Shown piece by piece: positions 12,149 to 19,167 of a stretch of DNA of 64,000 nucleotides. The number at the start of each line of letters is the position of its first letter. The first letter of the stretch is position 1. The stretch lies in sequence record OP292222.1; one strand, 5' to 3'. The notes under the pieces are model-generated. The model ran no database searches. It saw only the letters and a list, made by a program, of their open reading frames with translations, and was not told the DNA's origin. This DNA comes from Escherichia phage Esco_phi_B-01. The translations under genes were made by a program, and so were the position numbers.

Positions 12149-12222
12149 GGCCCTGTAGCTGGACGGTCAAGCGAGCGACTCATAATCGCTGGATGGTGGT
12201 TCGATTCCACCCAGGGCCACCA
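12149..12222 (+). tRNA. tRNA with CAU anticodon (Met, or Ile if lysidine-modified as in T4 tRNA-Ile)
   Basis: acceptor GGCCCTG/CAGGGCC, anticodon stem AGCGA/TCGCT with loop CTCATAA, T-arm GGTGG-TTCGATT-CCACC, 3' CCA encoded. Confidence 0.8.
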
Positions 12223-12226
12223 ATTT

Positions 12227-12301
12227 GGATGTGTAGCTCAGTGGTAGAGCAGTTGACTGTTAATCAATTGGTCCATGGTTCGAATCCATGCATGTCCGCC
12301 A
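12227..12301 (+). tRNA. tRNA-Asn (GUU)
   Basis: acceptor GGATGTG/CATGTCC with G-U pairs, D-arm TAGCTCAGTGGTAGAGC, anticodon loop CTGTTAA, T-loop TTCGAAT, CCA encoded. Confidence 0.75.
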
Positions 12302-12305
12302 AATA

Positions 12306-12381
12306 CGAGGCATAGCTCAGAAGGAAGAGCAACGGTCTTCTAAACCGTAGGTCGTAGGTTCGATCCCTACTGTCTCGACCA
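12306..12381 (+). tRNA. tRNA-Arg (UCU)
   Basis: acceptor CGAGGCA/TGTCTCG, D-arm TAGCTCAGAAGGAAGAGC, anticodon stem ACGGT/ACCGT with loop CTTCTAA, T-arm GTAGG-TTCGATC-CCTAC, CCA encoded. Confidence 0.8.
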
Positions 12382-14706: not shown

Positions 14707-14745
14707 GTTTACAACCCTCAGAGGACAGGGTATAATGTCCTCATG
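14707..14745 (+). promoter_or_regulatory. early promoter cassette with hairpin
   Basis: GTTTAC 14707-14712, 18-nt spacer, TATAAT 14731-14736; hairpin GAGGACA/TGTCCTC encloses the -10. Confidence 0.6.
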
Positions 14746-15380: not shown

Positions 15381-15404
15381 GGGAGACTTCGGTCTCCCTA
15401 TTTG
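15381..15404 (+). terminator. rho-independent terminator
   Basis: GGGAGAC-TTCG-GTCTCCC then TATTT. Confidence 0.65.
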
Positions 15405-15421
15405 GAGGAGAGGAGAATATT

Positions 15422-15964
15422 ATGAGTTTATATGATGACCTGATATCAAATGTCGATTGGTTTAAACATAGTGGTCTTTCCCATGAAACTAATGCAGTTC
15501 TTTATAGAATTCGCCAAGACTTAGGTTATTCCAATGATTTCTTAAGTCGAACAAGCAGACGTGGGCATACTACCAAATTACCTTTTATCTTTGCTTTAGC
15601 TGAAGACCTTTCTTTTGCAGAAGCTTTAGAAATTATTGACGTAAATCTGGGTATTCAACGGGTGGAATTCGCTGGACTACGTTATTCAGTATACTCTTTA
15701 AATGAACCAAGCGATTATAAACAGCTTGTTGATGCTGATGATGATTATCACTTGGTATGCTATTTGATGTTAGAAAACGGTGACCACTTTGGTATGGTAG
15801 ACCGTCGTCCGAGTTATTCGGATATTAAAAATTACGATAAAGATGAGCTTATTATTTTAGCCAACGAATATACATCAGAGAGTCGTAAACAACAACGGAA
15901 GCTTAATCGCTTTATTGCTGAATGCCGTGAATACGCTAAAGAGGTTCAAAATGGAACGGCCTAG
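15422..15964 (+). CDS. hypothetical protein
   Basis: 180 aa; RBS GGAGGAGAGGAG upstream. Confidence 0.5.
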   Translation: MSLYDDLISNVDWFKHSGLSHETNAVLYRIRQDLGYSNDFLSRTSRRGHTTKLPFIFALAEDLSFAEALEIIDVNLGIQRVEFAGLRYSVYSLNEPSDYKQLVDADDDYHLVCYLMLENGDHFGMVDRRPSYSDIKNYDKDELIILANEYTSESRKQQRKLNRFIAECREYAKEVQNGTA

Positions 15965-16304
15965 TCTTTCATCGCATGTTTATCAATTGGCTGAATATGA
16001 TATTGCTATTTCCTTATTCACGGGAATTGTCACAGGTATGCTCGGCGGTCTGGTTGGTCTGGTAATGACCACAGTTATGGCTGCAATCGAAGGAGTCATG
16101 CCTATTGAGATGGGTTTCTATATGATAATTGCTCCGGCTGTCGTGGCTTATTTTATCCCTCTCGTGTATGATATTTGCCATACAAATGCTTTGAATGCTC
16201 CCATCCGTAAGAGATATGCTTTAGAGATGGCTAATTATAATGAGTATGTAAAACAAACCAAACGTAATGACCTTGAAACCTTTATTAAGGAATGTAAATC
16301 ATGA
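15951..16304 (+). CDS. hypothetical membrane protein
   Basis: internal ATG after GAGG; two or three TM helices. Confidence 0.45.
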   Translation: MERPSLSSHVYQLAEYDIAISLFTGIVTGMLGGLVGLVMTTVMAAIEGVMPIEMGFYMIIAPAVVAYFIPLVYDICHTNALNAPIRKRYALEMANYNEYVKQTKRNDLETFIKECKS

Positions 16305-16591
16305 ATAAAATTGAAATTGAAATCCCTGAATACAACGACGAGAAATCTGCAGAAAAAGCTATCTATGCTCTTCTGAATAAAGTAGATACCATCGAACATG
16401 AATGTGAAGCTATTGCCGATAAGTACGGTATTCAATTCGGAACAGGTGATTATGGCTCAGGACGTACATACTACCCTGTTGGTTATGAATGCTCCCAGTG
16501 GTTTAAAGATGAAATTGAAAACAATGGTGGTGAAGTTGAAAATGGCGTCGTTACAGTTGGTGCCTGGATTTCCTCTTCAGCAATGTGCTAA
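16301..16591 (+). CDS. small acidic protein, paralog family member 1 (C-terminal WISSSAMC)
   Basis: one of four tandem small ORFs sharing a C-terminal W-[IV]-S-S-S-x-x-C motif. Confidence 0.5.
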   Translation: MNKIEIEIPEYNDEKSAEKAIYALLNKVDTIEHECEAIADKYGIQFGTGDYGSGRTYYPVGYECSQWFKDEIENNGGEVENGVVTVGAWISSSAMC

Positions 16592-16600
16592 GGAAACGCT

Positions 16601-16882
16601 ATGATGAATGATAACCATAACCACCCAGAGCTTCTGGCCGCAGTAAAAGAAATTCATGAAGCTATTCGTCGTGCCGAGGAAATTGCAGACAAATATGAGA
16701 CTCATTTTAATATATACCCTGCTCGCGGTATGGGCGGTGACTATTATTCTCCTGGTGCCTTGAAAGCTGACCTTGCCCATTGGGAAGAAGATGGTCATCC
16801 TGAATGGGCTATTGTTAATACTCATGACTATACAACTGACCTGGAAAATGGTGGTTGGGTGTCCTCTTCTTCTGAATGTTAA
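16601..16882 (+). CDS. small acidic protein, paralog family member 2 (C-terminal WVSSSSEC)
   Basis: as above; RBS AAGGAAA upstream. Confidence 0.5.
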   Translation: MMNDNHNHPELLAAVKEIHEAIRRAEEIADKYETHFNIYPARGMGGDYYSPGALKADLAHWEEDGHPEWAIVNTHDYTTDLENGGWVSSSSEC

Positions 16883-16891
16883 GGAAATATT

Positions 16892-17089
16892 ATGTCTCGT
16901 GAATTAGATTGTGCAATCCGAACTGCCGCGGCGGCTATTGAAAACGTTATCCAGATTTGCAAAGAAGAACGTGAAGAAGCTGATATCTATATCGATGGTG
17001 TTCGTGACTTAGAACGACATATCACGCTTTATAACGGTTGTATTACTATTAGTGGTACCTCTTGGGTATCATCCTCTTACGAATGCTAA
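16892..17089 (+). CDS. small acidic protein, paralog family member 3 (C-terminal WVSSSYEC)
   Basis: as above. Confidence 0.5.
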   Translation: MSRELDCAIRTAAAAIENVIQICKEEREEADIYIDGVRDLERHITLYNGCITISGTSWVSSSYEC

Positions 17090-17099
17090 GGAATAAAAA

Positions 17100-17324
17100 A
17101 TGACTGATATTGATGAATTAGAAAAAGCTGCTCTTGAACTGGCTGCATTGTATAAGAAAGTAAAAGATATGGCTTCTGCTCAAAGTTTTGGTGTTGAGTT
17201 AGACGATTACGATGGTGAAGTTCGTCTTGAAGATTGGCTGAATAGCTCTTGTTACGGCGAAGAAGCTGGCCGAACCTTCGTTGCTCGTCCCGATGGTAAA
17301 ATCTGGTACCCGAGCTCATGCTAA
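17100..17324 (+). CDS. small acidic protein, paralog family member 4 (C-terminal WYPSSC)
   Basis: as above, more divergent. Confidence 0.45.
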   Translation: MTDIDELEKAALELAALYKKVKDMASAQSFGVELDDYDGEVRLEDWLNSSCYGEEAGRTFVARPDGKIWYPSSC

Positions 17325-17545
17325 AATTAAAGAAAAGATACATTCGTAAAATAAACGGTCTTCGTGATTATGCCAAAGGTTGGCCGTTAAGTATTATTAT
17401 GGCTGATAGACACCCACGTTATAATACTGAGATGACCTATTACAAAAAGTATGATTCATATTGTCGGTCTAAAGCAGGTCGTTTAGATGGTTCTTATGAA
17501 GAATACTTTGGTAAAAAACCTACTCGTATTTCGTTAGGAAAATAA
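17318..17545 (+). CDS. hypothetical basic protein
   Basis: 75 aa ORF overlapping upstream stop. Confidence 0.45.
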   Translation: MLKLKKRYIRKINGLRDYAKGWPLSIIMADRHPRYNTEMTYYKKYDSYCRSKAGRLDGSYEEYFGKKPTRISLGK

Positions 17546-17575
17546 TTTAGCCACATGGATGTGGTAGGAGGACTT

Positions 17576-17905
17576 ATGCATAAAGATTCAGTATTCAAAT
17601 ACCTTTTGAAAACGGATAAAGAATTCTATATGAATGGGCAAGCTTTCTTGTTCATTCGTGGTAAACGTGAGATGTTTTATAAATGCGACCTCTCAATGCA
17701 TCACCATATGTATCATACCCATGGCGAGTCTATACTAGGGTTCTCTAGTGACGAGACTAGACACATAGCTATGTACTACGACCATTTTAAGCTCAATGAT
17801 TGTGGTGACAACGCTTTGGTCTGGAATCCATCTTGGCGACGTTGGGATATGGTAGACAACGATAAATTATTTTTAGAATATTGTAGAAGTGATGTACAAC
17901 TCTAA
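17576..17905 (+). CDS. hypothetical His/Cys-rich protein
   Basis: ATG after GTAGGAGG; 109 aa. Confidence 0.5.
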   Translation: MHKDSVFKYLLKTDKEFYMNGQAFLFIRGKREMFYKCDLSMHHHMYHTHGESILGFSSDETRHIAMYYDHFKLNDCGDNALVWNPSWRRWDMVDNDKLFLEYCRSDVQL

Positions 17906-17948
17906 AAACTTGTGTTACTATTACCCTACACAAACATGAGGAGAACAT

Positions 17949-18188
17949 ATGTGGTATTACTCTCCGCTGTCTGATAAGTCTGATGAGCCGGTACGAATTA
18001 GTCGTGCTAAGTTTAAAAAGATTTATGGCTTTGCCTATAAGAAGTCTGATTATGGTGTTCGTTTTGAAGATGCCCACTGTATCAATGACCCTTATGCGGA
18101 AGAAATCTCTAATGAGATAATTCCTATCGTTAAGAATAATTCTGATGATATGTGGGAATTGCATAACGATTACGTTGCTGAAATTTAA
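17949..18188 (+). CDS. hypothetical protein
   Basis: 79 aa; RBS GAGGAGA upstream. Confidence 0.5.
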   Translation: MWYYSPLSDKSDEPVRISRAKFKKIYGFAYKKSDYGVRFEDAHCINDPYAEEISNEIIPIVKNNSDDMWELHNDYVAEI

Positions 18189-18207
18189 GTTTACTGAGGA
18201 AAATATT

Positions 18208-19167
18208 ATGATGCTAGTTATTGGTTCTCGTGCACTGCACCACGCCGGTCTGATTGAAAGTAAGTATATCGAAAATTCTGATTGGGATTTTATTGCCGAC
18301 CAAGGCTCATGGAATCACTTTAAAGCCCGGATGTTCGGCGCTCATGTGCACGTAGACAACCCAGACGTCCAGGCTTTTAAATGCATGCACAACGGTAAAG
18401 AAACCTATTTTGAAGCTTATATCGTCCGCGCCTTGACTAACGTACGTGAAATTACCGGCGAGCTTCAGGACGAAGATTTAACCTCAAGTTATCGACTCCT
18501 GAAATACGCCGAAAATCATATTAAAAAGGATCGTCTTACAGGTTTCTATTGGGCAACGCCTGATATCTGTCTGGCTATCAAAATGAGCCATCGTTATTTG
18601 AAGAACCACCCTTTCTTTTTGAAGACGATGTCCCACATCAAATATCTTCGTAATAAAGGTGTAACCTTGAATGAAGAGCTCCAAGAAATCATGCTGCAAC
18701 GCCAGAAAGAAACGTTGAGCTATTCTCATCCTAAATTGGATGTAAACAAATCATCATTCTTTAATGATACCATTTATACATTAGACCATGACTCCATCCA
18801 CGAAGCTGTGGCATTGGCTGGACGCCCTGCATATACCTTTTATATGAAAGATGGTTCTGAAGTCATGACCTCACGTGAGAAGTTTGAAGCTTTGCCTGAA
18901 GCTATTAAACTGGCTGGCGTATATGAAGAAACTTGTGTGTTGGCCCTAGAACGTTCACAGGTTCCTAACGACTTTAATATTTCACCATCATTAAGTTTCT
19001 ATATGGCTCTTGAGAAAGTGTGTACCTCAATCACTTCAGGCTGGTTCCGCACTTATGCCTGGGAAAACTACCAAGCTGTAGTGAATATGTATAAGACGCT
19101 AGGTGAAAATGACTACATCAAGCGGTTCCAAGATAACCAACATTTAATTCGTCCTTTCACAAAATAA
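18208..19167 (+). CDS. predicted Pol-beta-superfamily nucleotidyltransferase (hypothetical)
   Basis: N-terminal IGSRALHHAGLIESKYIENSDWDF fits the GS...D-x-D nucleotidyltransferase signature; ATG after TGAGGAAAA. Confidence 0.5.
   Translation: MMLVIGSRALHHAGLIESKYIENSDWDFIADQGSWNHFKARMFGAHVHVDNPDVQAFKCMHNGKETYFEAYIVRALTNVREITGELQDEDLTSSYRLLKYAENHIKKDRLTGFYWATPDICLAIKMSHRYLKNHPFFLKTMSHIKYLRNKGVTLNEELQEIMLQRQKETLSYSHPKLDVNKSSFFNDTIYTLDHDSIHEAVALAGRPAYTFYMKDGSEVMTSREKFEALPEAIKLAGVYEETCVLALERSQVPNDFNISPSLSFYMALEKVCTSITSGWFRTYAWENYQAVVNMYKTLGENDYIKRFQDNQHLIRPFTK

Follow-up and report, generated by a model that had tools for sequence, protein, structure and literature searches.

In the MNT-HEPN (MntA-HepT) systems and in GlnE/GlnD, a nucleotidyltransferase (NTase) of the DNA polymerase β (pol-β) class nucleotidylylates a side-chain hydroxyl of an adjacent or dedicated partner protein. 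MenA1, a protein of 68 residues encoded upstream of a MenT NTase, provides a precedent for the pairing of such an enzyme with a small partner (PMC10435456). Here, we analyze a 64,000-nucleotide stretch of Escherichia phage Esco_phi_B-01 DNA (sequence record OP292222.1; hereafter the window), in which four tandem open reading frames (ORFs) encode small acidic proteins with a shared C-terminal tail, W-x(1-2)-S-S-x(0-3)-C, and a pol-β-fold NTase is encoded downstream on the same strand. Comparisons of related phages indicate that tail-bearing small proteins and this NTase form a conserved mobile module, and we tentatively propose that the tail docks all of the paralogs onto the enzyme. The proximity of the small-protein family to a pol-β NTase is new here and unites two groups of ORFans in a single module that can be tested. 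The genes in question are listed below, with ratios of nonsynonymous to synonymous substitution rates (dN/dS) calculated against Gaprivervirus VR7.

16301-16591, plus strand: P1, subfamily A, 96 residues, isoelectric point (pI) 4.26; phrog_899, E 2e-23; dN/dS 0.09
16601-16882, plus strand: P2, subfamily B, 93 residues, pI 4.69; phrog_899, E 3e-19; dN/dS 0.26
16892-17089, plus strand: P3, subfamily C, 65 residues, pI 4.48; phrog_4882, E 2e-36; dN/dS 0.06
17100-17324, plus strand: P4, subfamily E, 74 residues, pI 4.27; phrog_899, E 3e-9; dN/dS 0.11
18208-19167, plus strand: pol-β-fold NTase, candidate partner, 319 residues; Pfam DUF7277 and DUF7275, phrog_2141; RB69 counterpart RB69ORF134c; dN/dS 0.06

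The four ORFs of the original prediction were present with the expected lengths, strand, acidity (pI 4.26-4.69), and C-terminal sequences (WISSSAMC, WVSSSSEC, WVSSSYEC, and WYPSSC). A common TAAGGAA junction, said to follow each of them, was found after P1, P2, and P3 but not after P4, whose stop codon overlaps the next start (ATGCTAA). P1 contains a GDYGSGRTYYP loop and ends in GAWISSSAMC (tail codons 16565-16588), P2 contains a YPARGMGGDYYSPG loop and ends in GGWVSSSSEC (16856-16879), its last residue being its sole cysteine, and P3 ends in SWVSSSYEC (17063-17086). In P4, the motif occurs twice, as an internal DWLNSSC (17235-17252) and as the terminal IWYPSSC (17304-17321). Minus-strand ORFs of 66-85 residues that overlap the array were disregarded, as the plus frames have ribosome-binding sites (RBSs), orthologs, and low dN/dS values.

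Membership in the tail family was defined by two elements, an amphipathic helix at the N terminus and W-x(1-2)-S-S-x(0-3)-C at the C terminus, and all four window ORFs have both. The pattern W.{1,2}SS.{0,3}C$ ended 4 of the 673 ORFs in the window, all of them within the array, compared to 0.01 expected from shuffled tails. Across 36 aligned members, the tryptophan, one tail serine, and the terminal cysteine were invariant.

Multiple observations show that this tail is under selection at the level of the protein. First, in a survey of 77 tail-bearing ORFs from 33 loci, a TAAGG(AA) junction followed only 25 members; the remaining 52 lacked TAAGG, preceding overlapping starts, other spacers, or terminators, and yet kept the tail. 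Second, both families of serine codons were used in the tails of these 77 members (TCN 167, AGY 65). Third, the four window tails differ from each other at synonymous sites. Finally, the predicted fold energies of the junction RNAs did not improve on those of shuffled sequences (z −0.6 to +2.4). As originally predicted, similarity thus extended beyond the last two codons and the RBS of the next gene. Recent gene conversion among the copies was considered and rejected, as their synonymous sites differ. The only repeated DNA in the array was a 32-nt segment comprising tail and junction, present in three copies with 69-81% identity to the reference copy.

A different explanation would place the constraint in the nucleic acid, with the pyrimidine run of the serine codons pairing with the next Shine-Dalgarno (SD) sequence to couple translation, or with the junction being maintained as a cassette for recombination or ribosome binding. 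Folding of 62-nt junction RNAs did predict pairing of the SD bases (probability about 0.6-0.99), the minimum-energy folds of the P1/P2 and P3/P4 junctions pair them with the serine-codon run, and the TGCTAAGG junction has mediated a precise one-gene deletion (see below). Against this explanation stand the unexceptional fold energies, the 52 members without TAAGG, the retention of the tail by terminal members that precede terminators or overlapping starts, the alternation of TCN and AGY codons, and the synonymous differences among the four copies. We regard a nucleic-acid origin of the tail as largely refuted by these comparisons and give it next to no weight; any role of the tail in translational coupling would be at most secondary.

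The association of the small proteins with the NTase was examined from both directions. In all 12 loci found through the small proteins (L001-L011 and L030), the NTase gene, which encodes about 310 residues, lay 35-1071 nt downstream of the last member. Among loci found through distant NTases (36-56% identity), 11 of 15 had one to five members within ≤814 nt; these were loci of Pseudomonas PspYZU05, Phapecoctavirus ukendt, Otagovirus phiPsa381, Menderavirus Bhz51 (in which the members are downstream of the NTase), Acinetobacter Meroveus, and Shewanella Thanatos-2, one Tara marine contig, and four metagenomic contigs. The four loci without members were L017 and those of Roseobacter phage DSS3_VP1, Streptomyces Circinus, and Gordonia Yvonnetastic (L026-L028), the last three of which encode some of the most divergent NTase homologs sampled (26-33% identity). 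The association is therefore asymmetric, in that the NTase occurs without the small proteins (L017, L026-L028) but the small proteins were never seen without the NTase in the loci examined. Both single-member loci checked (Pseudomonas PspYZU05 and Shewanella Thanatos-2) contained a type E protein, encoded immediately upstream of the NTase.

Because the flanking genes differ widely between loci (nrdD in 44RR2, dda in PspYZU05, dexA in Thanatos-2, gene 41 in Acinetobacter Meroveus, and ribonucleotide reductase genes elsewhere), the pair travels together, and it does so outside the Straboviridae as well, in Phapecoctavirus, Otagovirus, and Menderavirus. No terminator-like site was found on the plus strand between 13.5 and 20.5 kb of the window, and we count its absence between the array and the NTase in favor of the module. 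Two other families were seen in these neighborhoods. In Phapecoctavirus ukendt, a homolog of vs.4 of phage T4, whose product is the anti-CBASS protein Acb2 (CBASS, cyclic-oligonucleotide-based antiphage signaling system), lies between family members and directly upstream of the NTase (L021 2638-2913). A family of ~140 residues (L018 2583-3053, L019 1022-1441, and L022 2411-2827) carries W-E-[SA]-S-G-x-C-E-W-E internally, with ...DYGWN[IV] at its C terminus, and may represent a related form whose motif has a non-terminal position.

The product of 18208-19167 has the features expected of the pol-β NTase superfamily: hG[GS]...DxD, a third carboxylate, and the characteristic fold. Gly6, Ser7, Asp25, Asp27, and Glu69, which make up the GS...DxD...E signature, were invariant in 56 homologs, as were many residues of the C-terminal domain, and because this signature is intact the enzyme looks catalytically competent. 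An AlphaFold2 model had a mean predicted local-distance difference test (pLDDT) score of 91. Its closest solved fold was the MenT1 toxin, other structural matches included MenT3/4, ANT(2''), and LnuA, and these relatives use hydroxyl acceptors, namely tRNA 3' ends (MenT1/3/4), aminoglycosides (ANT(2'')), and lincosamides (LnuA). A fold search of BFVD with the NTase returned other DUF7275 proteins only; Klosneuvirus-like giant viruses were also among the fold matches of the enzyme. No match to PF10127 (RlaP, RNA-ligase-associated NTases) was detected at E up to 1, nor was there a match in PADLOC. The NTase family is large, with 2,121 homologous clusters (more than 2,000 in metagenomes) and hits in 733 phage records by tblastn.

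Some distant DUF7275 genes adjoin tRNA genes in Thanatos-2 (L025 4459-4606) and Yvonnetastic (L028 5595-6137), genes for RNA ligase 2 and a phosphoesterase in DSS3_VP1 (L026 765-2310), a polynucleotide kinase gene in Circinus (L027 439-1311), and an RNA ligase gene in a metagenomic contig (L030 2361-2891). These neighbors hint at a tie between DUF7275 NTases and tRNA or RNA repair.

Given the structural relationship to MenT1, the small proteins could be antitoxin-type inhibitors resembling MenA1. In that case, the phage NTase would be a toxin that modifies tRNA and is directed against the host, and the N-terminal helix of the small proteins would keep it inactive until the right time, with no part in this contact for the tail. 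This explanation leaves both the most conserved feature of the family, its tail, and the two to five conserved paralogs per genome unaccounted for. Moreover, a profile search of PDB sequences detected no similarity to MenA1 (the 8an4 antitoxin chain was absent from the matches at E up to 10), and it is not evident why a strictly lytic phage would need an addiction module. We consider antitoxin function very unlikely.

Instead, we favor a model in which the ORFs of the array are expressed genes of an old, multi-paralog family of small acidic proteins that, with a MenT/ANT-like NTase, would make up a module moving between phages as a unit. The tail would be a common docking peptide, used by every paralog to reach one shared site (most probably the cleft that contains the active site of the NTase), and the divergent bodies would give each paralog a separate role. 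Divergent bodies, an invariant terminal peptide, and the failure to find the family apart from a single enzyme gene are what would be expected of clients of a common partner. Bound in this way, the tail might be a substrate, with the NTase nucleotidylylating the hydroxyl of a tail serine, or a pseudo-substrate that gates the enzyme. We infer physical interaction, a function of the tail, and any chemistry from gene content and conservation, and place the probability that the shared tail docks all paralogs onto the NTase as substrate or pseudo-substrate at roughly 0.45. An AlphaFold2 model of P2, calculated from a 70-sequence alignment (pLDDT 61.7), is compatible with a peptide that becomes ordered only on its partner: helices 9-31 and 53-63 were moderately confident, and residues 73-93, which include the conserved tail, had pLDDT values below 50.

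Several points weigh against this docking model. The low confidence of the modeled tail may simply reflect the shallow alignment of subfamily B. Some family members lack the terminal cysteine (tails WTSSSQN, WSPSSESY, and ...ECN), and this residue is therefore not absolutely required. Similarity between the NTase and MenT is remote, at 9% identity, and no DUF1814/AbiEii match was found for the enzyme in Pfam. In the window, the array and the NTase gene have three unrelated ORFs (887 nt) between them, and adjacency could result from co-transfer in an accessory island rather than from joint function. Nor do any data explain the need for two to five conserved paralogs.

If the NTase does bind or modify the tail, then either phages would encode a new type of protein modification, or NTases related to MenT toxins would be regulated in a new way. 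A bearing on tRNA or RNA repair or on counter-defense is also conceivable, given that distant homologs of the enzyme lie beside genes for tRNAs, RNA ligase, and polynucleotide kinase. In a bolder version, large lytic phages would have a dedicated system for modifying protein tails, in which the NTase nucleotidylylates a serine of the W-x-S-S-x-x-C tail in several clients, perhaps on the way to a dehydroserine-cysteine crosslink like those of ribosomally synthesized and post-translationally modified peptides (RiPPs); the modified clients would act in RNA repair or counter-defense, and the module would be exchanged among Straboviridae, Phapecoctavirus, Otagovirus, and Menderavirus. We think it doubtful that this whole scheme is correct. 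Were the link only positional, the small proteins would be an ordinary conserved ORFan family.

Orthologs from 11 phages defined five subfamilies, A (P1), B (P2), C (P3), D (absent here), and E (P4). They share an architecture in which an amphipathic helix at the N terminus (ELxxAxxxIxxL...A) is followed by a 'YGxxF' strand, an insert that varies (GDYGSGRTYYP in A, YGMGGTYYSPG in B), a further strand, and G-x-W-x-S-S-S-x-x-C. The claim that all four window proteins are paralogs holds, to judge from alignments, for P1, P2, and P4. P1 and P2 were related over their whole length (pairwise score z = 6.9, or 4.1 without the last 10 residues), and P4 matches phrog_899 as they do. For P3, which resembles the other copies in its tail, the architecture of its N-terminal helix, and its position, paralogy is only suggestive. 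Comparisons of subfamilies by hhalign gave probabilities of 97.5% for A-B, 96% for A-D, and 93% for B-D that fell to 92%, 58%, and 50%, respectively, when the last 10 residues were trimmed. Subfamily C aligned with the others over 8-17 columns only (nine tail columns with A and B) and over none after trimming, and matches of E to the others were weak (14%).

These subfamilies are ancient. A, B, and E orthologs were found in Moonvirus, Kanagawavirus, and a Klebsiella T4-like phage, the last two of which have C and D as well. RB69 (Mosigvirus) has A, B, and C; Tegunavirus has A, B, C, and E; Winklervirus has A and E; Aeromonas phages also have A and E types; and 44RR2, AS-zj, and Serratia X20 have A and E only. 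Types A, B, and E were recognizable even in a Phapecoctavirus. By tblastn, single subfamilies were present in 116-280 sequenced phages, with D in 116 phage records. In RB69, ORF139c and ORF138c (L003 2173-2479) correspond to a subfamily A gene split by a frameshift, which could be a pseudogene, a sequencing error, or a case of programmed frameshifting. The array had been described as rapidly diversifying, with P4 as the more divergent copy, and neither description was borne out: orthologs occur in other Tevenvirinae genera and beyond, dN/dS values of 0.06-0.26 point to old, constrained paralogs, and type E recurs in the most distant phages sampled.

The age of the family also bears on the proposal that the proteins are independent host-directed effectors for takeover or anti-defense. 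In this view, mimicry of nucleic acid or binding of host proteins would fall to the acidic bodies and docking on a conserved host hub to the tail, with the NTase merely sharing a mobile island. Their small size and strong acidity (pI about 4.3-4.7), the location of the array in an early/middle hyperplastic region that is absent from T4, the vs.4 homolog among members in Phapecoctavirus ukendt, and the dispensability of single copies (D deleted here, A frameshifted in RB69) are all as this proposal would have it. Purifying selection and deep orthology, by contrast, are unusual for proteins in an arms race, and searches of PADLOC, Pfam, NCBIfam, and PDB sequences gave no significant matches. Because the hosts include Escherichia, Aeromonas, Pseudomonas, Acinetobacter, Shewanella, and marine bacteria, the hub would have to be near-universal, and the constant proximity of the NTase would go unexplained. 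We therefore judge host-directed activity to be unlikely, if still worth serious consideration. A rapidly diversifying anti-defense array is not supported, and the evidence points to a link with the neighboring NTase rather than to host takeover or anti-defense.

Subfamily D, a protein of ~70 residues ending in ...GFWFSSSMSC, is encoded between C and E in JS98, MN04, and most relatives but is missing from the window phage; most Dhakavirus relatives keep five copies. Comparison of window positions 17084-17091 with L001 10685-10920 and L002 4688-4927 showed that the C/E junction of the window is exactly what results when the left half of the JS98 C/D junction is joined to the right half of its D/E junction; the crossover lies in a shared sequence.

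17084-17091, plus strand: crossover point of the one-gene deletion, TGCTAAGG (cysteine codon, stop codon, and SD sequence), from comparison with the JS98 junctions

The Cys-stop-RBS junction thus permits recombinational gain or loss of whole gene units, as these sequence comparisons demonstrate for the deletion of copy D.

A single-sequence search of a 5.8-billion protein set with P2 returned close relatives only, and a profile search of the same set returned mainly E-type members. An exhaustive hidden Markov model (HMM) search gave 49 representatives at E <1e-3, nearly all of 70-108 residues, with no cellular family among them. All 18 representatives inspected share the architecture, and 15 of these end in W-x(1-2)-S-S-x(2-3)-C. 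Three longer proteins, P0191 (821 residues), P0215 (312 residues), and P0231 (788 residues), matched the family profile in four to seven stretches confined to the helix region, and are probably coiled-coil or low-complexity matches. Profiles of both families gave nothing significant against PDB sequences, the best natural (non-designed) match of the small proteins being a Nif11-domain protein at E 0.34, and PADLOC, NCBIfam, and Rfam gave nothing meaningful. No paper in the literature library searched mentioned DUF7275/7277, the RB69 ORF names, or the PHROG or Pfam identifiers. phrog_899 and phrog_4882 are phage protein families without an assigned function, and annotation of the small proteins and the NTase goes no further than 'hypothetical'. 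Public records call the four proteins 'hypothetical protein', except where they have plainly been mis-annotated ('major capsid protein', 'tail completion protein'). Deposited genomes, including vB_KpnM-VAC36, vB_YenM_P8, and UPEC07, mislabel the small ORFs or the NTase with these two names or as 'prohead assembly scaffold protein'.

The window belongs to a JS98-like Dhakavirus (Straboviridae), a T4-like coliphage, and region 15400-18200 shares 95.5% identity with Escherichia phage MN04 and 94.9% with JS98, both of the genus Dhakavirus. In JS98, the order of the 'e.x' accessory region is tRNA genes, e.8, e.6, two unnamed ORFs, the array, several small ORFs, a 320-residue ORF (orf122), e.2, nudE, and e; the syntenic T4 interval, e.6-e.5-e.4-e.3-e.2, contains neither the array nor the 320-residue gene, so that both members of the pair are missing between e.3 and e.2. 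Base composition of the array region was unremarkable. The RBS of P1 lies within the last codons of the upstream e.3/e.4-like gene, whose stop codon overlaps the P1 start (ATGA). The MotA-box pattern matched eight sites in the window, compared to 1.7 expected. Other features are as follows.

15951-16304, plus strand: e.3/e.4-like membrane-protein gene upstream of P1; phrog_2330
16217-16241, plus strand: candidate MotA-type middle promoter, TGCTTTA-N12-TATAAT, ~60 nt upstream of the P1 start; pattern search, consensus match only
12056, 13022, 16217, 26287, 43788, and 47564, plus strand, and 35019 and 37641, minus strand: MotA-box-like matches from the pattern search
14708-14736: sigma-70-like promoter, 11 of 12 matches, consensus match only
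17318-17545, 17576-17905, and 17949-18188, plus strand: three unrelated small ORFs between the array and the NTase gene; phrog_7065, phrog_9796, and phrog_3723
12149-12381: cluster of three tRNA genes (Met-CAT, Asn-GTT, and Arg-TCT), ~4 kb upstream of the array

How does this module compare with described systems? MenA1-MenT1 (Rv0078B/Rv0078A), a toxin-antitoxin pair of Mycobacterium tuberculosis, shares the arrangement of small partner and NTase. MenA1, however, has no invariant W-SS-C tail, whereas the phages have two to five conserved paralogs with one. The phage small proteins show no sequence similarity to MenA1 (no homolog in the search of the family profile against PDB sequences at E up to 10), the phage NTase has no DUF1814/AbiEii match in Pfam, and the setting is a lytic phage. 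In MNT-HEPN and GlnE/GlnD, the enzymes modify tyrosine; the phage proteins have no HEPN homology, and their modification is our hypothesis only.

RiPP clusters, such as those of the Nif11-leader prochlorosins, also combine tandem small paralogs, a helical N-terminal part, a serine- and cysteine-containing C-terminal peptide, and a single adjacent enzyme gene. They differ in having a variable C-terminal peptide, which in the phage proteins is conserved; the Nif11 match (E 0.34) was insignificant, and no RiPP enzyme domain or known RiPP enzyme family was found in the neighboring genes scanned. Compared to known anti-defense proteins and DNA mimics, the phage family has acidity in common, with no significant match in Pfam, NCBIfam, PADLOC, or PDB sequences and sub-threshold matches at chance level only. 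Small acidic accessory proteins of T-even phages, such as the DNA mimic Arn, are similar in size, acidity, location in the early/middle region, and dispensability as single copies. Unlike these non-homologous proteins, members of the family described here occur in multiple copies, end in a defined tail, and are linked to an NTase.

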